NCBI GenBank assembly: GCA_964589855.1
Contig: CAZPVB010000002.1
Location: 12,274-76,273 of the forward strand
Reading direction: 5' to 3'
Origin: an uncultured Bacteroidales bacterium
Lineage (GTDB): Bacteria > Bacteroidota > Bacteroidia > Bacteroidales > UBA7960
DNA length: 64,000 nucleotides
Shown: positions 1 through 27,507 of the stretch, piece by piece
Position numbering within the stretch: the stretch's first letter is position 1
Layout: the number at the start of each line of letters is the position of its first letter
Translations under genes and position numbers: made by a program
Notes under the pieces: model-generated
Seen by the model: only the letters and a program-made list of their open reading frames with translations
Told to the model about the DNA's origin: nothing
Databases searched by the model: none

Positions 1-19
1 CCGGTTTGATCCGGTCTCC

Positions 20-310: not shown

Positions 311-397
311 ACCGGCAGATTCAATAATTTTGGCAATAAATTCGATATATTCTTCAAAGTTCTACAAAACTAAAAACTGTTTTAATGAATATCTTCC

Positions 398-894: not shown

Positions 895-963
895 AGTCTC
901 TATAATTAAATATAGTATAGATTGCCCCGTAATTGCAAACAAACCCCCCTTCCAACACCCCTT

Positions 964-3126
964 CTACAACTTCACAAATTTCCTGCTGTAATAATCAATC
1001 CGGGTATCATTTCCCCGTTTTAACTGAAACTGAACAGTGAATAACCCTGGCGAAAGTGGAGATATATCCATCATAAAAACCTTTTCCTGACTCATGATCA
1101 GCTTGTCAACCGATTTCACGAAAACACAATCGCCGCTGGCATCAAATATCATAACATCACCCACCCCCGAGTGCTTATCAGGCAGGATAAACTGAATAAA
1201 TTTGCAAACCGGGTTGGGAAAAATTTTTACAGTCTGGGTGTTATGGGTCAAATAAGTATCTGCGAATTCGTCTGCATTTACCGGTAAACTTTTAAAGTTG
1301 GCAAAAAGTATCATGTCTGAATTGATAATCAATTCCAAAGGATTATCAGAGGAAAAAAGGTTACCGGTCCATTGATCAAACACATACCCTGAATCGGGTT
1401 CTGCTGTAAGCGTTACCGGGGTATTATCCAGGTAACTCCATCCGGGAGGATCAGCCAAGACCCTACCCTCGCCCTCAATGTATATCTGGATAGTGTTGAT
1501 CGACAAGGTCTCAAAAACAGCAGTTACTTCTTTGTTCTGATCCATAGTGATGATAACCGGGTTGGATGTTCCTGAGATGTCGCCACTCCACTCTTTGAAT
1601 ACTTCAAAAGGTCCCGGGGAAGCGGTAAGGGTAACTTCCTGACCAGCATCGTAAACACCCGAAGGGGGATCAGCAGCAATAGTTCCCTCACCCTCCGCAC
1701 TCATATACAGGATCACAAAATTTTGATCCTGCAAATATGTAGGTCCTGTATTGTATTCCGTGGCATGAGGTTGAATGATAACCTGGTCTGAAAATTCATT
1801 ACACCCAACATCCTTAAGGGTAATATCAGCAGGGCGGGTTTGTTTCATAATATCCAGCATTATATCATGATCAATATCGAGATCAGAAATAGCAGAAATG
1901 GGGGGAAATCCCTGTTGCGAAACATCAATTGCCGGACTGGTTTGTGCCAGCTGGTAAAACCCTTCGTTGTTGAGTACAAGTTCGGGGTTTATATCGGAAA
2001 GTCCTTCTGAAGGGGATATTCCTAAATCACCGTTAAAAATATTTCCCATCCAGTTTACGTTTCCGGTGGGGTCGCTGAATACATCCTCAGAGGGGTTATG
2101 AAAAATATTATTGGCGAAGGTAACATCGGCGGGTGGGTATGCACCACTGCCGCCCAGGGATGTTTTCGCGCTGTTAATGATGGTATTATATGCAATAAGT
2201 ATGCGTTGAAGCGGGTCAGCAGAATAGTTCTGAAGATTCATTGCCCTGTTTGTTAACCCACTAAAATAGTTATTAAATACTGTATGATCCTGACCTTCCT
2301 TGATTCTCACGCCACCATATCCATCTAAAAAGAAGTTTCCGTAAACGATCCCTTCATCTCCATGGCGGAGTACAAGTTCACCATATGGATTATCTTCAAA
2401 GGTGTTATAACGATACACATTCTGCCTGCTCTTATGGGATATGATTTCGCCATCACCGTTACATTGTGTGAAATAGCAATACTCCACAGTTGTTCGGCTA
2501 ATACGCTCAGCCTGTGAACTGAGACCAATGCGAATGGGCTCAACCCCGGCATCGCCCCCTGGGGAGGTACCTTCAAAGTTTTTGAATGAACAATACCGGA
2601 TGGTATGATATCCCGGGCTTGCAGATGAAACTAAAACCGAAAGGATATTCTGATCGCCTACAAATGTGCGATTCTCGAAATTGCAATAGGATATCGTGGT
2701 GTATTCTGAGACTTCGCGTATGATGAGGTATTTGTAACAATAGTAGTCCTTTATGTTTATTTGGGTAAGGTGGTTGTTGCTTCCTTCTATATCAATTACA
2801 TTAGCAGTGCCGATATTGCCTTCCAGAAACTGAAATCCACTAATGGTATTATGACTTCCCATCACTTTCATTTTTGATGCTCCGGTGAAAACAGTTTTAC
2901 CGGGAATTTCTGCCATGACAGTAAGTTCCCATTTGCTTACCATAATGTCGATATCGTAATACAAACCTTCTTTCCACACGATGGTATCTCCGGCGGATGC
3001 ATTATTCTGAGCAGTGTAAAAAGAATTTACAGAGTTTACTTCGTACACATTAGGCAACACAGCACCCGGAAAGAAAATAATGAATGCAACAAACAGAGAA
3101 ATGGATAAAAAAGGGTTTTGAGACAT
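964..3126 (-). CDS. Polysaccharide lyase family 6 (PL6) beta-helix lyase with two InlB-B-repeat-like domains and a T9SS C-terminal sorting domain
   Basis: N-terminal signal peptide. PL6 signature block EPIRIGLSS...CNGDGEIISHKSRQNVYRYNTF...GELVLRHGDEGIVYGNFF..GGVRIKEGQDHTVFNNYF, containing the catalytic-type Lys and Arg. Two VTLTA.P..G..F..W(S/T)G repeats. C-terminal KIFPNP...beta-sandwich tail. Confidence 0.85.
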   Translation of the reverse strand: MSQNPFLSISLFVAFIIFFPGAVLPNVYEVNSVNSFYTAQNNASAGDTIVWKEGLYYDIDIMVSKWELTVMAEIPGKTVFTGASKMKVMGSHNTISGFQFLEGNIGTANVIDIEGSNNHLTQINIKDYYCYKYLIIREVSEYTTISYCNFENRTFVGDQNILSVLVSSASPGYHTIRYCSFKNFEGTSPGGDAGVEPIRIGLSSQAERISRTTVEYCYFTQCNGDGEIISHKSRQNVYRYNTFEDNPYGELVLRHGDEGIVYGNFFLDGYGGVRIKEGQDHTVFNNYFSGLTNRAMNLQNYSADPLQRILIAYNTIINSAKTSLGGSGAYPPADVTFANNIFHNPSEDVFSDPTGNVNWMGNIFNGDLGISPSEGLSDINPELVLNNEGFYQLAQTSPAIDVSQQGFPPISAISDLDIDHDIMLDIMKQTRPADITLKDVGCNEFSDQVIIQPHATEYNTGPTYLQDQNFVILYMSAEGEGTIAADPPSGVYDAGQEVTLTASPGPFEVFKEWSGDISGTSNPVIITMDQNKEVTAVFETLSINTIQIYIEGEGRVLADPPGWSYLDNTPVTLTAEPDSGYVFDQWTGNLFSSDNPLELIINSDMILFANFKSLPVNADEFADTYLTHNTQTVKIFPNPVCKFIQFILPDKHSGVGDVMIFDASGDCVFVKSVDKLIMSQEKVFMMDISPLSPGLFTVQFQLKRGNDTRIDYYSRKFVKL

Positions 3127-3194
3127 TACAGATGAATTTGGTGTAAATTTTTTAAAAAATTTTAATTGCAGGTTAAAGAACCGGCAAGCAGCGG

Positions 3195-5099: not shown

Positions 5100-5114
5100 A
5101 TTAATTTTTAAAAT

Positions 5115-6302
5115 TTAATTATCATTCTCTAACCATAGAAGTGGATATCGCATCACCAGGTTGCGTTGTACTTCTGTTACTTCAGGATCAGGTTCCAGTT
5201 CTTTCCACAATTCAATATACTTTTCATTTGAATAGGCAATGCCTCCAAGCACCAATGCAGGTTGCCTTACCGGCCAGTCATCCCAGTACAATACATCTTG
5301 CTGGTAGGGCCATACCGATTTGTCTTTGATATAAGGATAAAGAAATTCGAGACCTTTTTTCAGTCCTCTGCCATCTTCCAGGGTAAAATTCCATAAATTT
5401 TCATCGCCTGCCAGGGTAAGTATTTGTGCCAGCATACTTATGGCATCGAGGTTAAAAAGTGAATAGCCGTAGGGTTTGGTTCTGTCAATCTCCAGAGGGA
5501 AACTTCCGTCAGCAGCCATTTGTGAGGGAAGAAGATGCTCTTTAAATCTTGTTTTGCAGAACTGAATCATTTCATCATTGCCTGTCAGCAGCGCATAAGT
5601 TGAAGCCTGCACTGCCCAAACAGTTCCATGATTGTTGGGATGGATCATTTCAGCCTGACCGTATTCATGGGTATAAATCCAGGTAAGAAAGTCACTGAAC
5701 CATTCTTTAATGATTTGAATGTCGCTGCTGTTAACACCCGATGCATCAGCCAGTAACTGTGCACTACGGGCAGCTTCCACCAAATGCAGTCCATCAATTA
5801 TTCCTATGCCACGACCGGTATGCCGGCCCATTATTGCCTGGGAGTAGAGCATGTGAGGATTCATTCTGGTAGAATCATTCACAAACCAGGCGTTAAGGTG
5901 CTTCATGGCTTCGGATGCGTATTGGTCATCGCCGGTAAGAATCCACTTGCTGGTCATTGCACCCACAATGCGACTCATACGCACCATGGCCAGACGGTGG
6001 TCAACAAAGTTATCGGGGTTGCTCATGCCATCGCGCTGCACGTAAGGTCCATCAGGATTTTCAGGATCGGGCCACCAATAATCGCCTTCAGAATAAAAAT
6101 CATTGCGGGTGCCTGCACTGCGCTCAGAAAATGCATCGGTTACCATAATGGCAGGTAAATCCATATATTCTTTCACCAGATCATCAATTCTGCTCTTTTC
6201 GGTTTTTCGTACTTCGTTTTGTAATGATTGCTCTTCATTCAACTGGCAGGAAATAAATAAGGGAAGAAAAATCGCAAGTAGTGTTAGTGTGCTAATTCTC
6301 AT
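5115..6302 (-). CDS. Alginate-lyase-like (PF05426-type alpha/alpha toroid) lipoprotein
   Basis: Motif DYWWPDPENPDGPYVQRDGMSNP, typical of the alginate_lyase Pfam family. Lipobox LFISC follows the ATG at 6302. The ORF-track start at 6353 is a TTG, which adds 17 unlikely residues. Confidence 0.65.
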   Translation of the reverse strand: MRISTLTLLAIFLPLFISCQLNEEQSLQNEVRKTEKSRIDDLVKEYMDLPAIMVTDAFSERSAGTRNDFYSEGDYWWPDPENPDGPYVQRDGMSNPDNFVDHRLAMVRMSRIVGAMTSKWILTGDDQYASEAMKHLNAWFVNDSTRMNPHMLYSQAIMGRHTGRGIGIIDGLHLVEAARSAQLLADASGVNSSDIQIIKEWFSDFLTWIYTHEYGQAEMIHPNNHGTVWAVQASTYALLTGNDEMIQFCKTRFKEHLLPSQMAADGSFPLEIDRTKPYGYSLFNLDAISMLAQILTLAGDENLWNFTLEDGRGLKKGLEFLYPYIKDKSVWPYQQDVLYWDDWPVRQPALVLGGIAYSNEKYIELWKELEPDPEVTEVQRNLVMRYPLLWLENDN

Positions 6303-6392
6303 AGAGAAGTTTGATTTTAAAATTGAGATGATTGATTGAGAGGGATTCAACAATTGTAGTGTGATTTTATTCGCAAATGAACAGCGGAAATC

Positions 6393-6437
6393 TTAAAAGA
6401 AAAAAAGAGTGCAGATACACGATGGCATCTGCACTCT
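6393..6437 (-). terminator. Rho-independent terminator after the 1645-aa gene
   Basis: Perfect 11-bp stem agagtgcagat (6406-6416) / atctgcactct (6427-6437) with a 10-nt loop. On the minus strand it is followed by a T-run (plus-strand A-run at 6400-6406). Confidence 0.75.
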
Positions 6438-6451
6438 TATCAGACCTTAGT

Positions 6452-9400
6452 TTATTGTACAATAATTTTTGAAGTGGTTACATGGTTGGAAGCATCCAGT
6501 ACCTTAACAATGTAAACACCTTTCTGATCCATACCTGCAGAAATACGATTGGTTTCATTACCATCGATATTCATGATTTTTCTGCCTGAGATGTCATATA
6601 TTGCCACCTGTGTAATATTTTCATTTTCAGAAGAAACAATAATATTTCCATTGTAATTGAATACCCTTACAGCGTTTTCATTTATGGTTTCCAATCCGGT
6701 ACTCATGGTAATATTGACCGGGTTTGATCCTTTTTCAGAAATATTACCGGCAGCATCAATGGCGTATGCAAAGTATATTCCAGGTGTTAATCCGCTGGTG
6801 GATATCTCAATATCTGTATCGGCAGATGTAACATCAGCAACACCAGCATTACTAATGGCAACAGCTGTGAGGAAATCGGCCAGTGTGGATTGTGGTTCTC
6901 CATCGAGCATGATATACACCCTGCCATTGTCTTCACTACTTTGTACCATTACATAGCTATCTGCTCCATTTGTGGCAGATTGCACCTCTGCGCTTACCAC
7001 AGGGGCAATACCATCGGTAATGGTAATGATGCTCTCATCTTTATCCGACATGTTGCCACTTCCATCTACAAAGTAGGCGTGATAGATGCCGGGAGTAATG
7101 GCATAAGTAGATATTGCTACATCCGTATAGGATGCTGTAACTTCTGCTTTGGCGCCATTGCCGGCAGCAACTGCATTGTCCAGGTCTTCTTCCGTTTCCT
7201 GTGCAACTCCGTCAAGAATAATATATACATATCCGGATCCCAACGAAGCTTGTACTGTAACGGTTTGATCCATACCATTTGTTGCATCTTGTTGTTCTGC
7301 AAACACAACGGGCATAAGCTCTTCAACAGTATATGTAACACTGTTTTGGTCAGGATCCACAACATTTCCACTCAGGTCTTCCACGTTGGCAACTGTAATA
7401 ACAATTTCAAGGTCTGTTAACCCAACAAAGCTACCTGTGGTAATCACAACTGCATGGAAATTATAGAGCTCAACATTGGTTACGTTTCCTGTTAACCCGG
7501 CTGACCCGCTCATCGTATAGTTTTCAGGAGTTATTGCCGAGGTGGTATCAATGGGTTCGCTAAATCTGATAAGCAAGGTAGAATCTGTTAAAGCGAGTAC
7601 TTCCTGCAATACTTTAGGACCTAAAACATCCGCCCAGCGAAGGTCTCCCAAAGGTAGTCCATCACTTCCCAAAGAATAAAGAGTCATATTTTCAAGTGTG
7701 AGGTCGCCTTCACTGGGGTTAGCAAATTGAGGATCCTGGTTCCATACATTGGTACCAACAACACCATTTCCTACAGCAACAGGAGGATTGGCTTCGAAGT
7801 AGTTGAAATAATCGATTGTTGACTGATTTGTATCATCACCATAAATATCGAAAATGGTAGGTGAGGGGGAGTTTGCAAAGATAGAGTTGGTTACGGTAAC
7901 TTTTGTCAATGAATCAGCCAATATTACATCCTTTGTTTCCGACCCCACGTTGTAAAAGGTAGCATGATCAATATCAATAGGAAATTCGGCATTTACAGAA
8001 GGTTGATCCTTGATACGGATGGCCTCTTCAGGAATATTCATAAAAGTACAGTTGGTAATTTCCATTTTGTCCCAGGTAGGAGAGTCCTCACTGGACAGAC
8101 CGGTCATGCTGATGGCTTCCATGTCTTCAAAAATACAATTGCGGAAAATAATGCTGTCGGCGTGGGTACCGCCGTATGTTTTCAGAATTGTACCTGTTTC
8201 TTTCAGTACACCGCGGAAGTGGCAATCTTCAACAACGAGAGAATAATTACCAATGTTTGAATCAGCGCGAATCATATATTTTACCGGGTAGGTTGGGTGC
8301 TCTTTGCTATTCAATTCTACTCCTTTAAGAGTTAAGGAAGAACCATCAGCGAACAATCTGAATATCTGGTATGTTCCGGATTCTCTGTAATTGCTGATTA
8401 CAGGTCGATTTACAAGGTCTCTGTCGGCCATGATGGTAATTTTTGCAGTGATTTTATGCCATGCTTCCAGCGCGTAATCACCGCCATCGGTGGTTAATAC
8501 AAATACATCACCATCGCTGGCAGAAATAATATCGTTGGAAAGTTCTGCTGTTTGCTGGTCAGTATAATATCTTATTAATGGAATATATTCGGTAACCGTT
8601 ACGCTGTTTGTACTTACATCAGAAATGTTTTCAGATAAATCAACTGCATAGGCAAAATAAGTTCCAGGAGTAACACCGTCCATTGAAACACCAATTTCCA
8701 GATCACCACCCGGTTCTACCATTCCCATGGCGCCGTTTCCGGCATCAACAGCCGCCTGAAGATCGGCAACTGTTGCTACAGTTTCGCCCTCAAGAATCAG
8801 GTAAACACCACCGGGCTCGTTAGTTGTTACCATAACGGGATCTTCGCCTGAGGAATTGTTTACTTCCTGGGCATCAAGGGTTACAACAGGTGCGGTAATA
8901 TCTGTAAGAACTACCTGGTTTTCACTTGGATCTGATATGTTATTAAAATCATCTACGGCATAGGCATGGTAGTTTCCAACCAGTATGCCAGAAACGGGCA
9001 ATTGAACATCGGTATCCGCTGTTTCCACCACAGCACCTACACCCACATAATTATCGATTGCTGTTTGAAAATCTTCAATAACTGTTATTACCTGATCTTC
9101 TCTGATGAGATAAATCATACCGGTTTCATTACTCTGAGCCAGGGCAACAACACCCGGATCGTTGTTCAGTTCCTGCTGTGCCATGGTAACTACAGGTGGT
9201 GTTTCATCTAAATATGTATAAGTAGCCACGTTGGCATCTCCCACCGGGTTACCTGCAAGGTCTGTTACATTTTCAACTGTAACCACAACTGTTTCATTGA
9301 AATTCATGGTGCTTAAATCAGGTACTTCGAGTAAAACACTTTTGAAGTCATCTGCCAAAACAGCACTGGTTGGGTTTCCTGTTAATCCAAATGTACCACT

Positions 9401-11389: not shown

Positions 11390-11479
11390 GATGTTTGTTT
11401 TTAGAGTGATAATTAATTGGTTTTTATAGCGAGAAAATCCTGAAGTATGTGTTTGGTAAGGATGAAAAAATGTATTGAA

Positions 11480-13870: not shown

Positions 13871-13939
13871 AACACAATTATTAGATTATGATTGTTTCTG
13901 AAAACTAAGGTTGTTTTCCCCTGCATATCAGAAGATTAA

Positions 13940-15532
13940 TCATTGAACGCGCAATAGTTTACCGCTCTTCGTGTATGATGCCGTCTCAATTTGATAAAAC
14001 AGCACACGGTTACTAACTTTTGTACCACTTGTATTGGTTGCATCCCAGGTAAGGTTATATTCACCGATGGGTTGCTCTGCATGTATCAATTGATTGATTT
14101 CTCTTCCGCTTACGTCGTAAATGGTAACGGTAACCATCCCTTTTTTCATTACCTCGTAAGATATATTTACGGTATGATTGAAAGGGTTAGGAAATGCATT
14201 CACCGCAGGTTCGTGGATTACAAGCTGTTCTGTTCCGGTTTCAATTCCCGGGAAATAGTTGAGGTTTCCAACAGGTAGTCCGCCATCGGCAGCGGTATAA
14301 GATTGTGAGTTTGTATCATAGGAAAGATCAATCTGATCAGAGAAATATCCACCGTCTCCACCAACACACCAGCTATCGGGGTAGGTTCCGGCACTGGGAT
14401 CGGCATAATAAAGTGCAATATAGGAAATCTGGGGATCGCACATGGTGGTAAACTCCAGTGGTTCTGAAAAATACATATTGTCTGCATTTTCTTCGCCAAT
14501 TGCCTGAATAAGGAGTGGGTTTACAAAATCGGGTTGACTTACTGAGTCTATCTGATTCCATAGGTTGATTACTGATTCATCCCAGTAAATATTGTTGTTT
14601 CTTATCTCATAACTGCCATTTTCATGGATGGTATCCAGTGTAATAACAGAAAACCGTGGTGGTTCTTCAGGTTGAGTTTGTTCGGAAGTAAGAGCATCGG
14701 TATGACCAATCATCACAACATTGGCAAAAACAGAATTTTTCACTGTAGCGTTAATACAGTTACCCAATTGTATTCCACCGTGCCTTCCCACGGTATTAAC
14801 TGCCGTTAGGTGATCGATATACAAATAATTTACCTTTGTATTCATATTTCTGATAATCCTGTCAGTAAGATTGTAGGTGGTAGAGTTTTCAATGATAAGA
14901 GTATCCAGAAACTGGGCTTCCGGTCTGAGGTCAATAAACCTTCCGTTTCCACCAAATGCAGTGCGGTATCCGATGTTTCCCATGGTGCAGTTCTTAACAA
15001 AAATACTCAGCGAGTCGGCACGGGCACAAACAGAAGCTGCCCTGTCGCCATCGAAAGAAACGTTGATAAACTCATATCGTCCGCCGGTACCTCTTAATTC
15101 CACTTCCCAGTGTTGAAAACCACCATCAGGCAGATATCCCATAAAGGCGATATTTTCAAGTGTCATATCATAATATGAACGGATATAATCGAGTCCGTAG
15201 GTACCATCAGATTTTTCAGATGGTTGTATTTCTGGTGGTAAACCTTCGCCTTCTTTACCTCTGATATGCAATTTGAAATCAAAGTTTTCAATTTGTTTTC
15301 CCAGGTAGTAAATCTGATTTCTGTTAAGTTCAAAGATTACATTAGGGTTGGTTTCTCTTTCTACCGAATCTTCCAAAATGGCATAGTAGAGAAGGTTTTT
15401 ATAAGGTTCGGGATCTTCGCCCGATGCAGGGTCCCATCCTTGTACTTCTACAATCCGGGTTTCTTGCGCAAAAAGACCAAGGGAAATAATCAACAGTAAC
15501 AGCGTTACAAAAAGCGTGTAATGATTTTTCAT
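13940..15532 (-). CDS. Secreted beta-helix protein with T9SS C-terminal domain, sitting in the position normally taken by SusD
   Basis: Signal peptide without a lipobox Cys. Beta-helix repeats (VKNCTMGNIG, IIENSTTYNLTDRIIRN, VKNSVFANV) related to the modules of the 1645-aa protein. C-terminal NAFPNPFNHTVNISYEV...VTIYDVSGREI. The gene starts 33 nt after the receptor gene ends. Confidence 0.7.
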   Translation of the reverse strand: MKNHYTLFVTLLLLIISLGLFAQETRIVEVQGWDPASGEDPEPYKNLLYYAILEDSVERETNPNVIFELNRNQIYYLGKQIENFDFKLHIRGKEGEGLPPEIQPSEKSDGTYGLDYIRSYYDMTLENIAFMGYLPDGGFQHWEVELRGTGGRYEFINVSFDGDRAASVCARADSLSIFVKNCTMGNIGYRTAFGGNGRFIDLRPEAQFLDTLIIENSTTYNLTDRIIRNMNTKVNYLYIDHLTAVNTVGRHGGIQLGNCINATVKNSVFANVVMIGHTDALTSEQTQPEEPPRFSVITLDTIHENGSYEIRNNNIYWDESVINLWNQIDSVSQPDFVNPLLIQAIGEENADNMYFSEPLEFTTMCDPQISYIALYYADPSAGTYPDSWCVGGDGGYFSDQIDLSYDTNSQSYTAADGGLPVGNLNYFPGIETGTEQLVIHEPAVNAFPNPFNHTVNISYEVMKKGMVTVTIYDVSGREINQLIHAEQPIGEYNLTWDATNTSGTKVSNRVLFYQIETASYTKSGKLLRVQ

Positions 15533-15565
15533 AGTAAAACTTATTTAGGTGATAAATTGATTGGT

Positions 15566-18442
15566 TTAGAATTTATATCGTATCCCGATATCGAAGGTGC
15601 TTCCATATCGGTTTTCAGACGTAACATAGCGGGGCCTCCAGGTGTATCTGCGCTCACTTTCTGCTGTAATATTGGCAAGGTTTGCCATGAGCATGAGATT
15701 GGGACCAATTTTTTGAGATATACTTGCATCAAATCTCAAATGATCATCAACGTAGGAATAAAAGTATTCAGTAGTTTCGGATGTACCCCTGCTGCTAAAT
15801 CCGGTAAGATAAGCAGCCTGGTAAACAGCAGATAACCTGATGGAAAATCCTTCGAAATCATAACCAATGGATAGGTTTGTTATCCAATCGACCTGGTTTG
15901 GTAAGTTGGTGGCATTTCTTTGATAAAATGATGAATCGGCCAGGAAAACATTACGACGAAGAACCGGATCGTAGTATTCGAAAGGCTGGAATGTAAAAGA
16001 AAATGTTTCTGACCACAATCTTGTAGCGTTGAGGTTGAGGACAATACCATTGAAAGGTGCCGGCAAATAATTGAAATTGGTTTGCAGATCAGCTTCCAAC
16101 CCGAGCACTTTTGAATCATCAAAATTCAGATAATCCTCATCAACATCGTAAACCTGCTCAGGGTATCCTCTTTCCACTGCTTCTTCCATTCCCATTCTAC
16201 GGGTAGTTTTGGTAAAATAGTTGTCAAATTCTTTATAAAAGGCACCTACTGAGAACAATCCGAATTTGTTGGTAAAAAACGACATATTATAATCATAGTT
16301 CCATGCCGTAGCATGATGCAACTCTGTGTTGCTCTTGTTAATTCTTGCATCCTGAATATTAAGATTGACCCTGGGGGCAAGCATGTTATAAGCAGGGCGT
16401 GCAATAGTGCGGGCAGCCGACATGCGTATATCAAACCATTCGAAGGGTTTTATCTTCAGATGTGCGCTGGGCAGGAGTTCTCCATAGTTTTGGTCAGAAG
16501 TAAGATCTTTTACCTGCCCCGACTCGCCGTGAAGATCAATATCTGAATAAACACCCGAATAGGTGTTTTCTGATTGTTCGTAACGAATACCAGGTATAAA
16601 AGTAATGATCCGCCCAAAATTCAGTTTGGTCATAATATAACCGGCGTAAACGTTTTCATGCGCCTGGTATTTCAGATATTCTTCATTATAAACAGGATTT
16701 AATTCATCCTGCTGGTGCGTTTGCCATTCATCTATCCTGTCGAAATTAAATGCCGGATAAATATTGTAGCTTCCATTCCAGATACTAAGATCACTGCCAT
16801 CCTGCACAAAATTATTAAGACTTATTTTATCGTAAATGGTATATTGCATGTCATAAGGCCAGTTATCAACTGCTCTGTTTATATAAGCCTGATCGAGGTA
16901 ATACCAAAAAACTAACTGGTGGTTATGGTCATAAATCCGCTCGTCGGTTGTTAGTTTTCCTCCAATTTTCAAAAACCCTGAAGTTGACCCTCCGAGGGTA
17001 AAGTCATATTTCAGATCCAATGCAGCCTGCAAATTATCATGTTCATTCCATGCGGGAGAAAAATAGTATTTTTCCAATTGGGCATCAGCAAAATTTTCAA
17101 TTCGTTTTGCGTTGAGTGCTTCGGGATTATCTTCCATGGGAGAATCCTCAATACCATCATATTGTACGATATCAAGCGATACATCGTAGGGTTTCTCATT
17201 TACTGTGCTGCTGCGAGACAAGCGCCATTCTGCTTCTATTCCGGCAAAACGTTGCTTACCTGATAATAGTCCCTGCAGAACCGACATGGTTCCGTAATTA
17301 TGCGTGGGCCGATGCATAATTCTACCTGCATTTTCAAGTGAATTAACGGAAAGGAATTTATCGGTGCTGCGGCCACTATAAAAACCTTGCGCCATGACAT
17401 AACCGCTTGAATAATCATAATCAAATTGCGCACTACCCCCAAAGCGCTGGATGGTTTTGTTTTCATCCGTAATATTAAGGCGTGAAACCAATACCTCACC
17501 CACATCAATATTGTTCTTATTCCATCCAACATTGATCCGCTCAGAGCTTCGGTTGGTATTTTCATAATTGGCCTTGAAGATCACGCCCAGTTTTTGATCA
17601 AAAAACCGATGGTTAAAATTTAACGATCCTTTATAATTTCCCAGTTCTGACTTCAAACTGTTGTACCCTCCATACATCCTAACCTCGGTTACCGGTATAT
17701 CAGATGCTTTGATCACACCCAAATTGAGCACCCCACCGATAAAATCGCCATCCATGTCGGCAGTTGGCGATTTAAAGAGTTCAATGTTGGATAGTAATTC
17801 GGGAGATATCATGCTCAAATCTACAGAACGGTCACCTGAAGAAGTGGAAGGTAATTTCACACCATTAATGGTAACAGAAGTGAGGTCAGGACTTAATCCA
17901 CGTACAACTACTTTGGAAGCTTCCCCGCCACTGCGCTGCACACTTACACCGGGCAAGCGGCCAATGGCTTCGGCAGCATTTACGTCGGGTAATTCTCTGA
18001 TCTTATCTACAGAAACAACATTGGTCAATGCATCAGAATTCAACTGCCTGTTTATGGCCGCCCGCTGCCCCATCATCTGTGCAGAAACAATTACTTCCGA
18101 CAAACCAACAGCATCTACACTAATGGACACATTTAATTCTGTTTCACTTCCGGCAACGATTGCGGTTTCAACTCTTTTACTTTTATACCCAATATAAGAG
18201 ATAATAAATGTATATTCCCCGGAAGGAATATTCATAATGCGAAAGGAACCATCAATATCGGTGACAGTACCTGTAGACATTCCATCAATCGCAATGGTAG
18301 CACCTGGCAGAGGTTCATTGTTGGATTCATCGGTAATAATTCCAAATAGAGAGCCGTTACCTTGCGAAAAACCGCTAATGCCAAATATCAGAAAAAAAAC
18401 AGATTGTAAAAAGACAGTTTTCATTATACTACTCATAACCAA
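15566..18442 (-). CDS. TonB-dependent receptor (CarboxypepD_reg + plug + barrel), non-SusC type
   Basis: N-terminal GIITDESNNEPLPGATIAIDG...GSFRI domain. Plug motifs DKIRELPDVNAAEAIGRLPGVSVQRSGGEASKVVVRGLSPDLTSVTINGV. Terminal aromatic residue (...GIRYKF). Confidence 0.9.
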   Translation of the reverse strand: MVMSSIMKTVFLQSVFFLIFGISGFSQGNGSLFGIITDESNNEPLPGATIAIDGMSTGTVTDIDGSFRIMNIPSGEYTFIISYIGYKSKRVETAIVAGSETELNVSISVDAVGLSEVIVSAQMMGQRAAINRQLNSDALTNVVSVDKIRELPDVNAAEAIGRLPGVSVQRSGGEASKVVVRGLSPDLTSVTINGVKLPSTSSGDRSVDLSMISPELLSNIELFKSPTADMDGDFIGGVLNLGVIKASDIPVTEVRMYGGYNSLKSELGNYKGSLNFNHRFFDQKLGVIFKANYENTNRSSERINVGWNKNNIDVGEVLVSRLNITDENKTIQRFGGSAQFDYDYSSGYVMAQGFYSGRSTDKFLSVNSLENAGRIMHRPTHNYGTMSVLQGLLSGKQRFAGIEAEWRLSRSSTVNEKPYDVSLDIVQYDGIEDSPMEDNPEALNAKRIENFADAQLEKYYFSPAWNEHDNLQAALDLKYDFTLGGSTSGFLKIGGKLTTDERIYDHNHQLVFWYYLDQAYINRAVDNWPYDMQYTIYDKISLNNFVQDGSDLSIWNGSYNIYPAFNFDRIDEWQTHQQDELNPVYNEEYLKYQAHENVYAGYIMTKLNFGRIITFIPGIRYEQSENTYSGVYSDIDLHGESGQVKDLTSDQNYGELLPSAHLKIKPFEWFDIRMSAARTIARPAYNMLAPRVNLNIQDARINKSNTELHHATAWNYDYNMSFFTNKFGLFSVGAFYKEFDNYFTKTTRRMGMEEAVERGYPEQVYDVDEDYLNFDDSKVLGLEADLQTNFNYLPAPFNGIVLNLNATRLWSETFSFTFQPFEYYDPVLRRNVFLADSSFYQRNATNLPNQVDWITNLSIGYDFEGFSIRLSAVYQAAYLTGFSSRGTSETTEYFYSYVDDHLRFDASISQKIGPNLMLMANLANITAESERRYTWRPRYVTSENRYGSTFDIGIRYKF

Positions 18443-18600
18443 TAAAGATTTTAAGGAATCTAAGCGATAATTAAAAATAAAAAGACAATTAGTGACACGA
18501 TCAGTATAATACCAATGATCACCTCAGGTATTACCTTATTACTATAATTTTTAAATTTCAATTTATTAAACATCATTTATTTTTTTTCGTGGTGACAAGT

Positions 18601-18633
18601 CAAATGTAAACCAAATGTTAAGCGGGGCACAAT
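18601..18633 (-). promoter_or_regulatory. Candidate Bacteroidota-type promoter of the receptor operon
   Basis: On the minus strand: TTG (18632-18630), 21 nt spacer, then TACATTTG (18608-18601). This matches the TTTG-N19-21-TAnnTTTG consensus with one mismatch in the -33 box. Confidence 0.4.
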
Positions 18634-18638
18634 AAGAT

Positions 18639-18707
18639 AGGTTGCAAAAAATGTCAGTATCGATACAAATGATGTAAAACAGGTTGCAAAACATCATGCA
18701 GGTTGCA
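18639..18707. promoter_or_regulatory. Three direct repeats of AGGTTGCA (minus strand TGCAACCT) directly upstream of the candidate promoter
   Basis: Copies at 18639-18646, 18681-18688 and 18700-18707, with spacings of 42 and 19 bp. The first two extend to AGGTTGCAAAA.AT. The 10-mer ATAGGTTGCA recurs at 22961-22970, upstream of the HTCS gene. Confidence 0.45.
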
Positions 18708-18714
18708 TGAAGCG

Positions 18715-21700
18715 TCAGAAAAGAGATTTTGAGGTTGCTTTTTTACTGAATTCTTTGGGGGTGTATCCGGTGAATTTTTTAAAGGTAGATATAAAATGAG
18801 AGTTGCTGTTGAAACCGGTTCTTAAGCTCACTTCATTAACATTGTACTCACCTTCCTTTAATAACTTTTTGGCCAGTTTAATTCTTTCGGCTCTTATGTA
18901 ATCGCTGGGTGTATTGTCTGTAATTGCTTTAAACTTACGAAACAACTGAGAACGGCTCATACCCAACAAATTACCCAGATCTTCAACAGAAAAGTTGTAA
19001 TCAGAGATATTTTCCTGTACAGCATTTTCTACCTTTTCGAAAAAAAACTTATCAGATTTGTTTATTGCCACTTCAGATGGCTGCACATCAAATTGATTGG
19101 CGAACCTTTTGCGCAACAGGTTCCGCTGCTTCAGGAGGTTTTGTATTTGTGCATCTAAAAAATGCAGATCAAACGGTTTTTCCACATATGCATCGGCACC
19201 GTTTTCCATTCCTTCTATTTTGTGCTCTACAGCAGTTTTGGCAGTAAGCAATATTACAGGTATATGGCTGGTAATAAAACTGGATTTAACCGCTTTACAC
19301 AATGATACCCCATCCATGCGTGGCATCATGATATCTGAAATGACCAGGTCGGGCATCGATTCATGGATCATTTCAACAGCTTCCAGTCCATCCCCCGCTT
19401 CCAAAATGTGATAAGCACTGAGGTGAGTTTTTAAAAATTTCCTCAATTCAATATTATCTTCAACCAATAATACCTTGTTCTGTTTCGGTTTTTTATTTTC
19501 ACTACCCTCTTCTGATTCGTGCTGATCAAAGTTTGACTTTATTTCCGGAGATTTCATGGTGGATAATACCGCGTCAAATTCACTCAAAGAATCATTGGGA
19601 AAAGCATTTTTAGTGATGGGGATATTTACGGTAAAAACAGTTTCTGTTCCGGGCTGGCTTTTCACACTTATTTCGCCACCATGCAATTTAATAAGGCTTT
19701 GCGAAAATGCCAGGCCGATGCCCGTACCGTTATATTCTCCAAAATCATGATTATCTGTATAGAAACGTTCAAATATTTTGTGTATCTTTTCTTGTTTAAT
19801 TCCCACACCGTGATCAATCACCTTAATGATAGCTCTGCTGTTGTCGTGCAATTCTAATACTACTTCGATGTTTGATTGCCTACGGGAAAATTTTAAAGCA
19901 TTTGAAAGGAGGTTAAAAACAACACTATCTATGACATTTGGGTCAAACCACTGCTGTTTACCCTGGTATTCAGAATTGTACTGATAATTTATGCAAATAG
20001 ATTTTTCTTTGGAATAATCCTCAAAACCATTGATAATTTCCTGAATAAACAATACAAGATCGCCCTGCCTGACTTTGAGATTATATTGCTGGTTCTCTAT
20101 CTTGGTAAAATCCATCAGTTGCCTTATCAGGCGAAGCAAACGCATTACATTCTTATGCATCCCTGAAAATAAGTCCTTTCTTTGGCTGTTGTCCTGATCG
20201 GTTTGTCTGATTAATATATCCAGAGGAGCAGCAATCAATGTAAGCGGTGTTCTGAATTCATGGGAAATATTGGTAAAGAACCGCAATTTCATCTGATTGA
20301 TCTGTTCTGATCTTTCATGCTCTCTTCGCTCCTGCTCAAGGAGTCTTTCCTGTTCGATACGCTTAACAATAAAATAATACATGCTCAATACCAGCGATCC
20401 AATGAAAACAATGTAAAGGGTGTATGCCCATTTTGTTTTCCAGGGCGGTGGAGCAATTGATAACTTTACAGATCTGCTTTCAGGACTAAACAATCCCTGA
20501 TCATCCATGACTTCTACCTGAAATTCATACTCACCAGGATTGATGTTGGTATAGGTGGCAACAGATTTTGAACCTGCTTCAATCCAATCTTCATCATACC
20601 CTGTAAGTTTGTAGCGGTAATTTTTTCTTTTGGTTGAGTTATAATTCAATCCCACAAATTCAAAGGTGAAATCAGCCTGATAATGCTTTAAATCAATATG
20701 ACTGGTGCGATTGATATGCTTCTGAAGGGGTGAGGACTTTTCTCCAATGGGCACGGACTTATTAGAGATTTTAAAATCGACAAAGTGAATTGGCAAATTT
20801 ACAGAGTGATCTATAATCTGTTCAGGATTAAAAATATTAAACCCATTACTACCACCAAACAGCAGTTTTCCATCATCAGTTTTCAATGAAACATAATTCT
20901 CAAATTGATTCCCCTGCAACCCGTCTTCCATATAATAATTCCGAAAAATTGCGGCAGCAGGATCAAACCGGGAAAGACCATTAGAGGTACTGATCCATAT
21001 CTGTCCCGCATCATCTATCTCAAGGGCACTGATCTTATTGCCGGACAAACCGTCTTCCTCTGTCCAGGTTTCTATAATCTGATCATTTACACGCAGATAA
21101 TTAAGTCCTTCATCGGTACCAATCCACATATTTCCCTGTTCATCAAACCGAAGCGCTGTAATGTTATTGCTGGATAATTTCCCGTTGGTATTCTCAACAT
21201 TAATCTCCTCTATTTCACCATCAGAAAACCTCAATAGTCCGTTGAATTTGCTGCACATCCAGAAATCATCACTGTGCTCATCCTGTACAAAACTTTTTAC
21301 AGACAGATTGCCTTCAACCGGCCTAAAACTAAGATCATCCTGGTTGAATCGAAATACCCGTCGAAGACTTGATACCCATATTTGTCCTGAATGATCCTTA
21401 AGAATGGAATAAATCCGATTATTTTCCGGATCAATTGTTCCATCCATGCTTATCTTGAGGTTGGTGAAAGTTTCTGTTCTTTTATCAAAAAGATCAATTC
21501 CTTCTCCATAAGTACCAATAATAAGTGTGTGTTCGTTTAGCTGGTTGATGGCAAAAACATAGTCGCTACTAATCGAAGGAACACCATCCTTACTTTTATA
21601 ATTCTTGAATGTACCTGTCTCTGGGTTAAATTGGCTCAATCCTCCCCCCTCTTTGGTTCCGACCCATATCAACCCTTCACTATCCTGAAAAAAACATTTG

Positions 21701-22800
21701 ATATCGTTGCTAAGCAATCCATCAGACCTGTAATTCACCTTATAATGATGAAAGGGATTGCGGTTATGATTGATATAGTTAACACCTTTGTTCCAGGTGC
21801 CCAGCCAAACGATGTTATTCGTGCTGAACACCCCCGATATGATACCTTTGCTGTTTAAACCATTCTGATCGTAAATATCCGGTTGAATTAAAGATAGTTC
21901 TTTATCTATGTAGTTATATATGTACAAACCCTGGTCGCGGGCCAGAAAATAAAGATTCTGTGCATTATCTTCAAGGATTGTATGGATACGATCAGAGTAC
22001 GACATAGATTCAAACCGATCGGTAAAGTTCAGCAGGATTTCAGTTTGCAAATCAGCCTCGAAAACCCCCATATGCTCTGTACTTATCCAATAATTACCCT
22101 TTGAATCCTTCCATACACTTTTTACATCCTTTAGCAGATCACTTTCGAACAGATGCGTAACTGTTTTGCTATCAGGATCCATCAAATCAACCCCCTCGTT
22201 GGTACTTATTATGATTCCATATTCACTGTCGAATAATAAATGATTTATACGATCTGAAATCATTGATGCTGAATCATCCGGAAGGTTTGTTATATGCTCT
22301 AATTGCCTACTTTCCTTATCATAACAAAATAAACCAACATAAGTCCCTATCCATAGACGGTTTTCATCATCAAAGGCAAGGGTAAAAACATTATTATCAA
22401 TAGAATTTGATTGATCATGAAATTTTCGGGTAAAACTGTAGGTGGATTTATCAAAATAACTGACTCCTCGCTGGGTGCCGATCCATAAATTGCCTGTGAC
22501 CGGTTCACTTACAACAGAGCGAATGACATTATGATGCAAACTGGTAGAATCATTTTTATCGTTTTTAAAAACAATTATTTCCTCTCCGTTATATAAGTTT
22601 AGTCCCTCGTCGGTACCAAACCAGATAAATCCTTCATCGTCCTCATAAATACAAGTGATATGATTGGAGGACAAACCCTCATTATTAGACAGGTGATCAA
22701 AGTAAAGAAATTGACTTTTGGGGATTGAAAAACCACTTGATATGAGCATTGCAAATAATATCCCCCAAAAAAACTTTCTGATATGTATAAAATTTAGCAT
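18715..22800 (-). CDS. Hybrid two-component system sensor kinase / response regulator with AraC-type HTH (HTCS)
   Basis: Periplasmic beta-propeller repeats (W.GT..GL..Y/F reiterated). TM segment WAYTLYIVFIGSLVLSMYYFIV. H-box FFTNISHEFRTPLT. ATPase boxes DHGVGI and GTGIGLAF. Receiver domain KVLLVEDN...VISDIMMPRMDG. C-terminal AraC HTH (...SHFISTFKKFTGYTPKEF). Confidence 0.95.
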   Translation of the reverse strand: MLNFIHIRKFFWGILFAMLISSGFSIPKSQFLYFDHLSNNEGLSSNHITCIYEDDEGFIWFGTDEGLNLYNGEEIIVFKNDKNDSTSLHHNVIRSVVSEPVTGNLWIGTQRGVSYFDKSTYSFTRKFHDQSNSIDNNVFTLAFDDENRLWIGTYVGLFCYDKESRQLEHITNLPDDSASMISDRINHLLFDSEYGIIISTNEGVDLMDPDSKTVTHLFESDLLKDVKSVWKDSKGNYWISTEHMGVFEADLQTEILLNFTDRFESMSYSDRIHTILEDNAQNLYFLARDQGLYIYNYIDKELSLIQPDIYDQNGLNSKGIISGVFSTNNIVWLGTWNKGVNYINHNRNPFHHYKVNYRSDGLLSNDIKCFFQDSEGLIWVGTKEGGGLSQFNPETGTFKNYKSKDGVPSISSDYVFAINQLNEHTLIIGTYGEGIDLFDKRTETFTNLKISMDGTIDPENNRIYSILKDHSGQIWVSSLRRVFRFNQDDLSFRPVEGNLSVKSFVQDEHSDDFWMCSKFNGLLRFSDGEIEEINVENTNGKLSSNNITALRFDEQGNMWIGTDEGLNYLRVNDQIIETWTEEDGLSGNKISALEIDDAGQIWISTSNGLSRFDPAAAIFRNYYMEDGLQGNQFENYVSLKTDDGKLLFGGSNGFNIFNPEQIIDHSVNLPIHFVDFKISNKSVPIGEKSSPLQKHINRTSHIDLKHYQADFTFEFVGLNYNSTKRKNYRYKLTGYDEDWIEAGSKSVATYTNINPGEYEFQVEVMDDQGLFSPESRSVKLSIAPPPWKTKWAYTLYIVFIGSLVLSMYYFIVKRIEQERLLEQERREHERSEQINQMKLRFFTNISHEFRTPLTLIAAPLDILIRQTDQDNSQRKDLFSGMHKNVMRLLRLIRQLMDFTKIENQQYNLKVRQGDLVLFIQEIINGFEDYSKEKSICINYQYNSEYQGKQQWFDPNVIDSVVFNLLSNALKFSRRQSNIEVVLELHDNSRAIIKVIDHGVGIKQEKIHKIFERFYTDNHDFGEYNGTGIGLAFSQSLIKLHGGEISVKSQPGTETVFTVNIPITKNAFPNDSLSEFDAVLSTMKSPEIKSNFDQHESEEGSENKKPKQNKVLLVEDNIELRKFLKTHLSAYHILEAGDGLEAVEMIHESMPDLVISDIMMPRMDGVSLCKAVKSSFITSHIPVILLTAKTAVEHKIEGMENGADAYVEKPFDLHFLDAQIQNLLKQRNLLRKRFANQFDVQPSEVAINKSDKFFFEKVENAVQENISDYNFSVEDLGNLLGMSRSQLFRKFKAITDNTPSDYIRAERIKLAKKLLKEGEYNVNEVSLRTGFNSNSHFISTFKKFTGYTPKEFSKKATSKSLF

Positions 22801-27432: not shown

Positions 27433-27473
27433 GTATAATAATGGTGAGTGAGTTTTTCCGTTGCATTTTTTTT

Positions 27474-27507
27474 CAAATTTATGAAAAATGTTAAAATACC
27501 CCACAAA
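27474..27507 (-). promoter_or_regulatory. Candidate promoter of the NTPase gene
   Basis: On the minus strand: TTTG (27507-27504), 22 nt spacer, then TAAATTTG (27481-27474). The spacer is 1 nt longer than the usual 19-21. This would give a 5' UTR of about 35 nt before the ATG at 27432. Confidence 0.35.

Follow-up and report, generated by a model that had tools for sequence, protein, structure and literature searches.

The window analysed here is a 64-kb stretch of DNA in which positions 964-22800 carry eight co-oriented open reading frames on the minus strand, all lying where an earlier note on this DNA had placed them. Together they constitute a genuine acidic-polysaccharide utilisation locus, in a Bacteroidota bacterium resembling the Prolixibacteraceae, that joins a hybrid two-component system (HTCS) regulator to a CAZyme cluster, much as that note had proposed; the regulator architecture is complete and the PL and GH families are matched. 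The features are:

18715..22800, minus strand: HTCS regulator, 1361 aa, with Reg_prop, Y_Y_Y, HisKA, HATPase_c, Response_reg and HTH_18/AraC all matched
18443..18714, minus strand: intergenic region of 272 nt between HTCS and transporter, presumed promoter of the transporter operon
15566..18442, minus strand: TonB-dependent transporter (TBDT), with N-terminal CarboxypepD_reg extension, plug and TIGR01782-type barrel (Pfam CarbopepD_reg_2, Plug, TonB_dep_Rec_b-barrel)
13940..15532, minus strand: p530, 530 aa, with signal peptide, beta-helix (right-handed, about aa 25-430) and type IX secretion system (T9SS) C-terminal sorting domain (CTD) (AF2 model, fold match, synteny)
11480..13870, minus strand: p796, with signal peptide, beta-helix similar to those of capsule depolymerases/lyases, Ig-like domains and divergent CTD (AF2 pLDDT 91.7)
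6452..11389, minus strand: p1645, with signal peptide, two beta-helix modules, Ig-like region, third beta-helix module (DUF5123), second Ig-like region and T9SS CTD (HMM matches, internal repeats)
6405..6438, minus strand: terminator-like hairpin by its pattern, lying between p1645 and PL38, with a 14-bp stem and then a run of T
5115..6302, minus strand: PL38-type polysaccharide lyase, 395 aa, with lipoprotein signal (…LFISC); PF05426 278.8 bits
3195..5099, minus strand: unsaturated glucuronyl hydrolase of family GH88 (aa 7-395) with a fused DUF2334/polysaccharide-deacetylase-like domain (aa 415-604) and lipoprotein signal (…LFSSC)
964..3126, minus strand: PL6 lyase, with beta-helix, two Flg_new_2 repeats and weak T9SS CTD (Chondroitinas_B 115.5 bits, Flg_new_2 75 bits)

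A promoter search of 18443..18714 returned generic sigma-70-like matches only, at chance level. The strong hairpin between p1645 and PL38 (6438-6405) makes two transcription units possible, one with the transporter and one with PL38, GH88 and PL6, and any co-regulation of the two would be a presumption. Genes for downstream sugar catabolism are absent from the locus, and no sulfatase was found in the 64-kb window, in agreement with the earlier note.

Enzymes and T9SS-tagged proteins

The PL6 and GH88 enzymes recognised previously are both present with intact catalytic residues. In PL6 the catalytic Lys (SHKS), the catalytic Arg (LRHG) and the Ca-site D/E residues align with K220, R241, E213 and E215 of AlyGC, and the protein scores about 85 bits against solved PL6 alginate lyases. 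GH88 falls below the threshold of the Pfam GH88 model, retains equivalents of Asp88 and Asp149, the catalytic residues of Bacillus UGL 1vd5, and matches 3wiw from Pedobacter heparinus (E 1.5e-115). This closest GH88 is Phep_2830, a 1,4-linkage-specific unsaturated glucuronyl hydrolase. The C-terminal domain of the present protein matches DUF2334 (33 bits, cutoff 26) and Polysacc_deac_1 (17 bits), a fusion that the earlier note had not recorded. A third protein had been described as alginate-lyase-like; the PF05426 match bears this out, but its more exact placement, previously missed, is with PL38. This protein matches 3nfv (5e-60) and BoPL38 8bdq (5e-40), and retains the BoPL38 residues Y91, D108, Q173, E236, N242, H243, R292 and Y298, with H297 replaced by Gly (preprint 10.1101/2024.12.11.627697). 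Its ORF would begin at 6353 if read from an upstream TTG; public gene calls include the 395-aa form. The lipoprotein-type signals of PL38 and GH88, read by eye and overlooked earlier, stand beside T9SS-tagged proteins, which points to the use of both export routes by the locus.

Four proteins had been assigned T9SS tags, and the evidence differs among them. The p1645 tag is above threshold (Por_Secre_tail 28.8 bits; TIGR04183 34.9 bits, cutoff 23), with a score of 37.9 bits against the ChiA-type model NF033708 (cutoff 40). The CTD of p530 is recognised by its fold, which matches PorZ 5m11 and PorU 6za2, its HMM score being borderline. The PL6 tag lies under the cutoff (Por_Secre_tail 20.2 bits, cutoff 27), and p796 has no HMM match, though its final 78 aa align with the p1645 CTD (E 1e-6). 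The description of beta-helix proteins among these holds, the helix being seen in the AF2 models of p530 and p796 and in the DUF5123 matches of p1645 (94 bits over three stretches), whose first two beta-helix modules are 80% identical. Foldseek matched p796 to the phage K64-1 depolymerase 9k4a (1.3e-11), LKA1 gp49 and the K1 capsule lyase 7w1c; its match to the BT3328-family lyase model NF058554 is weak (53 bits). Its C-terminal part aligns (E 7e-10) with the Ig-like region and CTD of p1645, and the two proteins co-occur in four related loci (L011, L012, L013 and L009, the last from the cultured Roseimarinus sediminis DSM 28824). For p796 there are 3867 homologues, of which those bearing a name are 'hypothetical'.

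A non-SusC transporter and its conserved partner

The transporter comprises 958 aa from a TTG start (public gene calls begin 6 nt later, giving 956 aa) and contains the plug motif that the earlier note had quoted in calling it a non-SusC receptor. This assignment stands: the protein passes TIGR01782 TonB-Xanth-Caul (350.1 bits, cutoff 310) and fails SusC/RagA TIGR04056 (86.1 bits, cutoff 368), to which the match is limited to aa 34-224. Since its CarboxypepD_reg N-terminal extension is of the Bacteroidota/SusC type, the architecture is a hybrid one. Among 1825 homologues at E<=1e-20, those named are from Bacteroidota. The locus had also been described as SusD-less, and within the 64 kb this survives reannotation: SusD Pfam families gave zero matches to the large ORFs of the window, and a six-frame search with six SusD-like proteins of related loci gave nothing better than E=0.1. 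The lineage itself is not SusD-free, as related genomes carry the same transporter and its p530 neighbour beside ordinary SusC/SusD. The presence of SusC/SusD in six related loci also implies that the TBDT-p530 pair is not simply a SusCD replacement.

The p530 gene, which starts 33 nt downstream of the TBDT, was overlooked by the earlier reading and is a conserved partner of the transporter across many lineages. In 22 of 22 distinct related loci retaining upstream DNA, combined from two samples, a TBDT homologue lies directly upstream of the p530 homologue. On the TBDT side, seven homologues (100, 68, 50, 48, 40, 38 and 38% identity) each have a Por_Secre_tail protein of 520-620 aa directly downstream; on the p530 side, a scan of GTDB species genomes for p530 homologues showed a TBDT homologue immediately before p530 at every locus with upstream DNA. 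The intervening gaps are mostly 25-50 nt, and the hosts include Bacteroidota, a Rhodothermales MAG (L026) and a Balneolaceae MAG (L030). Homology among the proteins in the p530 position is genuine (five loci, 36-67% identity), and their identities rise and fall with those of the TBDTs (r=0.97, n=21), as linked vertical inheritance would also produce. In most related loci an HTCS homologue adjoins the TBDT. The surrounding enzymes vary, including lyases, sulfatases, GH2, GH3 and GH92; the genes around the pair serve glycan degradation, with a bias towards anionic substrates (Sulfatase 22 and Hepar_II_III_C 8, as well as GH88, GH92 and GH2), and PL38, PL6 and GH88 recur. We found no paper on the TBDT-p530 pair.

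The AF2 model of p530 (pLDDT 92.4) comprises a beta-helix and a PorZ/PorU-like sorting domain; the protein would leave the cell through the T9SS and probably stay attached to its surface. The helix matches no Pfam family even at E<=10, neither DUF4957 nor DUF5123. Nevertheless the family (898 representatives at E<=1e-30) grades into DUF4957/DUF5123, and some members (e.g. P0380) match DUF4957 within the p530-like region; our literature search on these domains returned no functional study, only one paper on another subject that mentions each domain a single time. Across 72 family sequences of 26-75% identity about 45 residues are nearly invariant, many of them charged (R198, D201, R203, D224, R225, R228, D240, H241 and E284). 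We infer that p530 may bind glycan, cleave it or contact the transporter, adjacency alone being no proof of a physical or functional complex. As TIGR01782-type TBDTs function without any partner in Proteobacteria, p530 may even be dispensable for uptake.

Function and substrate of the locus

We consider it probable that the locus serves the HTCS-controlled use of an unsulfated uronic-acid polysaccharide and is built on a conserved outer-membrane module other than SusC/SusD. The T9SS would carry p530, PL6, the capsule-depolymerase-like p796 and p1645, whose three beta-helix modules are of DUF5123 type, to the cell surface or its vicinity, where they would bind and cut the polymer. Co-made with the transporter, p530 might capture or trim chains at its mouth, and the TBDT would admit oligosaccharides. 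The lipoproteins PL38 and GH88 would complete degradation, PL38 giving unsaturated oligomers from which GH88 would take off the unsaturated glucuronyl end while its deacetylase-like domain strips acetyl groups. A periplasmic product sensed by the HTCS would then induce the operons.

The substrate is likely to be an unsulfated polymer with 4-linked uronic acid. The previous argument, which led from 4-linked uronate to unsaturated glucuronyl ends and left the identity undefined, seems reasonable and is not decisively improved here. Characterised PL38 enzymes act on alginate, on beta-1,4-glucuronan, or on hyaluronan and chondroitin sulfate (PMC13027841, PMC12423752). Given this range, and a PL6 that scores no more than about 85 bits against any characterised enzyme, several substrates come into consideration.

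It is a serious possibility, somewhat short of an even chance, that p530 is not a binding protein and instead an endo-acting depolymerase founding an unclassified lyase/hydrolase family, which would make a cut-and-import pair in which its role is SusG-like rather than SusD-like. Such strong residue conservation is more in keeping with catalysis than with binding tuned to one substrate, unless the residues contact the transporter instead. The helix resembles tailspike depolymerases and the RbmB lyase, but only weakly (TM 0.25-0.39), none of the known catalytic motifs was recognised in it, and the DUF4957/DUF5123 families into which the p530 family merges offer no functional precedent that we could find.

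Rather unlikely is an ordinary alginate locus, in which PL6 and PL38 degrade alginate, the TBDT alone imports oligo-alginate as proteobacterial TIGR01782 transporters do, and p530, p796 and p1645 are secreted accessory enzymes or adhesins not specially linked to the transporter. In Tangfeifania (L020) the pair does adjoin GntR-SusC-SusD-PL6 (PL6 345 bits), an alginate-PUL-like arrangement. PF05426 and PL6 are classic alginate-lyase families, and BoPL38 and Aly38A are alginate lyases (PMC13027841). However, the present locus lacks PL7, PL17, KdgF and DEH-reductase genes, and its PL6 is distant from characterised alginate lyases. It also encodes GH88, which targets unsaturated glucuronyl/iduronyl ends and to our knowledge plays no part in alginate breakdown. 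Moreover, TBDT-p530 adjacency persists where the enzymes are sulfatases/GH92 or GH3/GH78/GH67, so the pairing is not alginate-specific.

It is very unlikely that the locus is non-nutritional, serving biofilm dispersal or predation through T9SS beta-helix proteins and lyases that remodel the exopolysaccharide or capsule of the organism itself or of its neighbours, while the TBDT just salvages fragments. In favour of this stand the likeness of p796 to phage capsule depolymerases and capsule-specific lyases, the weak likeness of p530 to the biofilm matrix lyase RbmB, and the missing sugar-catabolism genes. Against it, the combination of an HTCS, a TBDT and an exo-acting GH88 is what typically marks a locus for glycan catabolism, and sulfatases and exo-glycosidases abound in the related loci. 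That a SusD-like lipoprotein encoded elsewhere serves the TBDT in trans, making the system only apparently SusD-less, is extremely improbable: the 64-kb view is a limited one and related genomes encode SusC/SusD, sometimes within the pair's own locus, but the barrel is TIGR01782-type rather than SusC-type, and the SusD gene of such hybrid loci directly follows its own SusC-like gene (e.g. L020, L024 and L027).

Like canonical Bacteroidota PULs, the locus has an HTCS, a TBDT with CarboxypepD_reg extension, a partner gene immediately 3' of the transporter, and putative surface and periplasmic CAZymes in a single co-oriented cluster. It differs in its TIGR01782-type barrel, in a partner that is a beta-helix with T9SS sorting domain rather than a TPR-like SusD lipoprotein, and in the apparent service of the T9SS to four proteins (the p796 and PL6 tags being below HMM thresholds). 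Proteobacterial TBDT glycan loci (Xanthomonas/Caulobacter TIGR01782 class, marine Gammaproteobacteria) share the TBDT model and the lack of SusD; their regulators are usually LacI/GntR-type or other, not HTCS, and we know of no CarboxypepD_reg extension or T9SS partner for their transporters. As here, these transporters are clustered with CAZymes (review PMC13543919). Bacteroides alginate loci (PL6/PL17/PL38) and the Roseihalotalea indica GAG locus (PL8/PL35/PL38/CE19) resemble the present one in a PL38-type lyase with BoPL38 catalytic residues, in PL6 and in combining lyase with esterase/deacetylase-like function, and have SusC/SusD (PMC13027841); in contrast to them, GH88 is present here and PL7, PL17 and PL8 are absent. 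Among the DUF4957/DUF5123 beta-helix proteins of Bacteroidota glycan loci, p1645 is comparable through its DUF5123, whereas p530 matches neither model. Chitin utilisation by Flavobacterium johnsoniae relies on T9SS-secreted ChiA, a key depolymerase with a T9SS CTD, and keeps SusC/SusD pairs; we know of no description there of a conserved T9SS partner encoded next to the transporter. The present locus is likewise a Bacteroidota glycan locus with a candidate T9SS-CTD depolymerase, and the CTD of p1645 comes near the ChiA type.

Gene content and transporter class

The locus consists of eight co-oriented open reading frames on the minus strand of the window (964-22800), to which domains were assigned by Pfam and NCBIfam scans.

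Genes of the locus (coordinates, strand, domain content)
HTCS, 18715-22800 (-): hybrid two-component regulator with Reg_prop, Y_Y_Y, HisKA, HATPase_c, receiver and AraC HTH domains
TBDT, 15566-18442 (-): TonB-dependent transporter with CarboxypepD_reg N-terminal extension, plug and barrel
p530, 13940-15532 (-): beta-helix protein whose sole Pfam/NCBIfam signal is a C-terminal FlgD_ig/Por_Secre_tail
p796, 11480-13870 (-): beta-helix protein without a Pfam match that scores weakly on the BT3328-family hyaluronic acid endo-lyase model
p1645, 6452-11389 (-): beta-helix protein with three DUF5123 stretches and a T9SS sorting domain
PL38, 5115-6353 (-): PF05426 'Alginate lyase', 279 bits
GH88, 3195-5099 (-): sub-threshold Pfam GH88 with a C-terminal DUF2334/polysaccharide-deacetylase-like domain
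PL6, 964-3126 (-): Chondroitinas_B, two Flg_new_2 repeats and a weak sorting domain

In the order HTCS to PL6 the intergenic gaps are 272, 33, 69, 90, 98, 15 and 68 nt, the 98 nt between p1645 and PL38 becoming 149 nt if measured to the public PL38 start. A terminator-like hairpin is located between these two genes, which suggests that the locus comprises two transcription units. The public contig that carries PL6 stops shortly past that gene, and window positions 1-963 contain no ORF that would extend the operon beyond PL6; in this stretch there are three copies of a ~165-nt repeat (400-870) with 43-nt cores that are 95% identical, and a second short repeat at 468-548. The gene located directly upstream of HTCS (23260-27504, minus strand) encodes a protein of 1414 aa that shows a Walker-A NTPase motif and matches no Pfam family. 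It was rejected as a member of the locus, being instead an Avs2-like NTPase according to a weak PADLOC match (Avs2, STAND NTPase defence; E 1.3e-9).

The regulator is a true HTCS, carrying everything from the periplasmic Reg_prop/Y_Y_Y sensor through to the AraC HTH in one protein, with all domains above the Pfam cutoffs. As HTCS, TBDT, PL38, GH88 and PL6 are encoded within 21.8 kb, the region constitutes a CAZyme gene cluster or non-canonical polysaccharide utilisation locus (PUL). It does not possess the adjacent SusC-like and SusD-like genes of the PULDB definition; the locus works like a PUL, yet it falls outside the strict definition.

The earlier note had described the receptor as non-SusC and the locus as SusD-less, and both descriptions are borne out. 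The TBDT belongs to TIGR01782 (TonB-Xanth-Caul), against which it scores 350.1 bits (cutoff 310) in two stretches, the better of which aligns aa 436-958 with model positions 383-868. In contrast, its score against the SusC/RagA model TIGR04056 is 86.1 bits (cutoff 368), and this match is confined to aa 34-224, comprising the N-terminal extension and plug. Across the 64 kb window, no large ORF matches a SusD Pfam family, and a six-frame tblastn search of the window with six SusD-like proteins from related loci gave a best E value of 0.1. The barrel is of the TIGR01782 class, but because a Bacteroidota-type extension is retained at the N-terminus, the TBDT is, as judged from its sequence, a hybrid of the two styles. 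A secreted, repeat-rich protein of 502 aa (27981-29489, minus strand) was considered as a diverged SusD and rejected, since it shows no SusD match and only a faint DUF2807 adhesin-head match. Its C-terminus appears sorting-domain-like by eye and is matched by no model.

Conserved pairing of the transporter with a beta-helix protein

The p530 gene lies directly downstream of the TBDT gene, and this arrangement was sampled from both sides. Seven TBDT homologues (100, 68, 50, 48, 40, 38 and 38% identity) are all followed immediately downstream by a protein of 520-620 aa with a T9SS tail, and these proteins are true p530 homologues (36-67% identity). The enzymes encoded around the seven vary, and include GH2; PL6; four sulfatases with GH92; GH3/GH78/GH67 with a heparinase-II/III-like protein; GH43 with CBM96; and GH88. 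From the p530 side, a 5-sequence p530 alignment run against one genome per GTDB species returned 24 loci, and in every scanned locus with upstream DNA a TBDT homologue ends just upstream of the p530 homologue. When both samples are pooled, the two genes are adjacent in 22 of 22 distinct loci, separated mostly by 25-50 nt, with gaps near zero in L024, L026 and L027 and of 156 nt in L030. The pair is carried by Roseimarinus sediminis, Prolixibacteraceae and Tangfeifania MAGs, Reichenbachiella and unclassified Bacteroidia, and also by one Rhodothermales MAG and one Balneolaceae MAG. Sequence identities of the TBDT and of its partner rise and fall together (r = 0.97, n = 21), although linked vertical inheritance alone would produce such covariation.

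In the closest relatives (L008, L009, L011 and L012) p796 and p1645 homologues follow the pair, and in L013 they are inverted. The Balneolaceae locus (L030, 2205-9874) encodes a TBDT, a p530-like protein (608 aa) and a p796-like protein (891 aa) in the same order, outside Bacteroidota proper. Six related loci (L019, L020, L022, L023, L024 and L027) hold both the pair and SusC/SusD in the same cluster, so the two import systems coexist and are not mutually exclusive. For example, the Tangfeifania diversioriginum MAG (L020, 641-20212) encodes a heparinase-II/III-like protein, HTCS (on the opposite strand), TBDT, p530, GntR, SusC, SusD and PL6.

The AlphaFold model of p530 (pLDDT 92.4) is a right-handed beta-helix of ~400 residues followed by a sorting domain, a C-terminal beta-sandwich that matches the PorZ and PorU sorting domains in a Foldseek search. 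Relaxing the Pfam threshold to E <= 10 yields no family for the helix, which resembles solved structures weakly, these being phage tailspike depolymerases and the Vibrio matrix lyase RbmB. Among 1.84 billion cluster representatives searched with a profile, 898 are family members at E <= 1e-30, weaker matches being mostly due to the shared sorting domain. Where members are named at all, it is only as 'T9SS type A sorting domain-containing protein' or 'hypothetical protein'. Four longer members of 900-960 aa (P0364, P0366, P0376 and P0380) possess a fasciclin domain at the N-terminus or additional DUF4957/DUF5123/Beta_helix modules, and in P0380 the DUF4957 match falls within the p530-like region. 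As some of the longer members score on DUF4957 or carry such modules, the p530 family is best placed as a distant offshoot of the DUF4957/DUF5123 beta-helix group, for which we found essentially no literature. A paralogous relationship with p796 was rejected, as no similarity is detected by BLASTP.

p530 may function in binding, as an enzyme or as a structural partner. A functional analogue of SusD would form a physical complex with the transporter and bind glycan on its extracellular side; what is observed is the conserved adjacency in all 22 loci. Around 45 positions are near-invariant across 72 family sequences, many of them Arg, Asp or His. Because these charged residues are strongly conserved across loci with different enzymes, we lean towards catalysis or a conserved transporter contact as the probable role, over SusD-like substrate-specific binding.

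Putative degradative proteins and their predicted export

The AlphaFold model of p796 (pLDDT 91.7) has a fold that matches phage capsule depolymerases and capsule-specific lyases (9k4a, 4ru4 and 7w1c, E down to 1e-11). The protein has no Pfam match even at E <= 10, and its 53 bits against the BT3328-family hyaluronic acid endo-lyase model lie far below the cutoff. The p796 family comprises thousands of proteins, the named members of which are all 'hypothetical'. In p1645, two beta-helix modules are followed by an Ig-like region, a third beta-helix, a second Ig-like region and a sorting domain. The first two modules are 80% identical and the third is 28-30% identical to those, as mapped by comparing protein segments, since whole-protein self-BLAST gave the identity match only.

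Sorting signals (CTDs) differ in strength among these proteins. The p1645 tail is a T9SS type A domain (34.9 bits, cutoff 23), and that of p530 scores 22.8 bits against TIGR04183 (cutoff 23) and 25.2 bits against PF18962 (cutoff 27). No sorting-domain HMM matches the C-terminus of p796, but over its final 180 residues it aligns with the p1645 stretch comprising an Ig-like region and the sorting domain (E 7e-10), and over the final 78 with the p1645 sorting domain (E 1e-6). The PL6 tail reaches 20.2 bits against a cutoff of 27. Inspection of the sequence shows lipoprotein-type signal peptides on PL38 and GH88, and the public gene calls begin PL38 at a Met that yields the lipoprotein signal. On the basis of these CTD scores, alignments and fold, and of the signal peptides, four proteins (p530, p796, p1645 and PL6) plausibly use the T9SS and two (PL38 and GH88) are predicted lipoproteins. 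Further CTD-bearing proteins are encoded in the window, a NAGPA/Golvesin_C protein (32011-33879, minus strand) and a GH13 alpha-amylase with CBM48-like signals (41106-43943, plus strand). Their presence suggests that the organism has a T9SS in use, and it appears to use it widely for glycan enzymes.

The PL6 protein scores 115.5 bits against PF14592 (Chondroitinas_B; cutoff 24), and when aligned to AlyGC it retains the catalytic Lys and Arg, with D/E as Ca ligands. By sequence it is a PL6 family member of predicted activity, although it is distant from every characterised PL6 enzyme (~85 bits). The protein previously termed 'alginate-lyase-like' does match PF05426, and this call can be refined to the group containing 3nfv (E 4.8e-60) and BoPL38 (8bdq, E 4.5e-40). 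Nine key residues have been singled out in BoPL38 (preprint 10.1101/2024.12.11.627697), eight of which are kept (Y91, D108, Q173, E236, N242, H243, R292 and Y298), the ninth, H297, being replaced by Gly. The Pfam GH88 model alone is below its cutoff for the 634-aa GH88 protein (15.9 versus 26.6), but the GH88 call stands, given the matches to Pedobacter heparinus GH88 (3wiw, E 1.5e-115) and to Bacillus UGL (1vd5, E 2.2e-50) and the alignment of both catalytic residues of the latter, Asp88 and Asp149, to Asp. Fusion of GH88 to DUF2334 is not universal, as the homologue in L033 consists of GH88 only (409 aa).

Candidate substrates, proposed mechanism and significance

In the closer clade (L004, L011, L015, L019, L023, L025 and L033), PL38, PL6 and GH88 are again encoded near the pair. 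Neighbours across all loci are enriched in sulfatases and heparinase-II/III-like proteins, and the TBDT-p530 module is therefore associated with anionic glycans in general. No sulfatase was found in the window, and neither PL7 nor PL17 is present among the locus genes. Together with the intact GH88, whose nearest solved relative (3wiw) is the heparin-disaccharide hydrolase of P. heparinus, and with its deacetylase-like fusion, these absences point to an unsulfated polymer containing 4-linked glucuronic (or iduronic) acid, possibly acetylated. Candidates fitting this description are beta-1,4-glucuronan, a heparosan-like or another bacterial exopolysaccharide, and a hyaluronan-like polymer.

Alginate has to be weighed against this reading, because characterised PL38 enzymes act on alginate, on glucuronan, or on hyaluronan and chondroitin sulfate (PMC13027841, PMC12423752), and because the pair in Tangfeifania adjoins a GntR-SusC-SusD-PL6 block that resembles an alginate locus. 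However, of the set expected for alginate utilisation (an exo-acting oligoalginate lyase of PL15/PL17 with KdgF, DEH reductase and KdgK/KdgA), no Hepar_II_III, cupin/KdgF or SDR match is present in the eight genes or in the other scanned ORFs of the window, though such genes may be encoded elsewhere in the genome. We give a GlcA-type polymer a little under an even chance, regard a substrate of some other kind as rather unlikely and consider alginate unlikelier still.

Alongside the observed gene content, family memberships, intact catalytic residues, absence of SusD and TBDT-p530 adjacency, a working scheme can be proposed. The T9SS would place p530, p796, p1645 and PL6 at the cell surface, where they would bind and cut the polymer; the resulting oligosaccharides would be imported by the TBDT, degradation would be completed by PL38 and the GH88-DUF2334 fusion, and HTCS would sense a product.

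T9SS-exported enzymes are known in glycan loci, for example in the Flavobacterium johnsoniae ChiA system. The locus TBDT is of the same transporter class as the TIGR01782 TBDTs of Xanthomonas, Caulobacter and marine Gammaproteobacteria, where such transporters are used without partners (PMC13543919), and 'non-canonical' PULs without SusC/SusD have been acknowledged (PMC9122927). What appears to be new here is the conserved pairing of a TBDT clade with a T9SS-tagged beta-helix protein, of which we could not find a description in the literature, our coverage of which is admittedly incomplete. We tentatively propose, with confidence well short of even, that the pair represents a second type of system for capturing and importing glycans, one that does without SusD, in FCB bacteria possessing a T9SS. 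In this model a TIGR01782 transporter would operate only in complex with a beta-helix protein anchored by way of the T9SS, and that protein would bind or cleave the polymer at the mouth of the transporter. PUL prediction in Bacteroidota (PULDB and many metagenome studies) is keyed on the SusC/SusD pair and would overlook TBDT-p530 loci for this reason, leaving a recurrent module invisible to such pipelines even though, at 50% clustering, the partner family still counts ~900 representatives. Were the partner needed for uptake, the T9SS would be tied directly to nutrient import, beyond enzyme export. The p530 protein would represent a new family, either of binding proteins or of lyases or hydrolases. 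Three other candidates for a part in degrading acidic glycans, all uncharacterised, are the p796 family, the protein with triple DUF5123 and the GH88-DUF2334 fusion. Experiments on the question are feasible in a cultured carrier, Roseimarinus sediminis DSM 28824.

Elsewhere in the window, a glucosamine-6-phosphate-deaminase-like region is fused to a PIG-L-type deacetylase region (34183-36543, plus strand) and a NamZ exo-MurNAc hydrolase is encoded at 52771-54075 (plus strand), so genes for amino-sugar catabolism occur 12-30 kb from the locus. A protein of 946 aa (37940-40780, minus strand) has a long C-terminal coiled coil with weak DivIVA/Scy-like and apolipoprotein-like matches.
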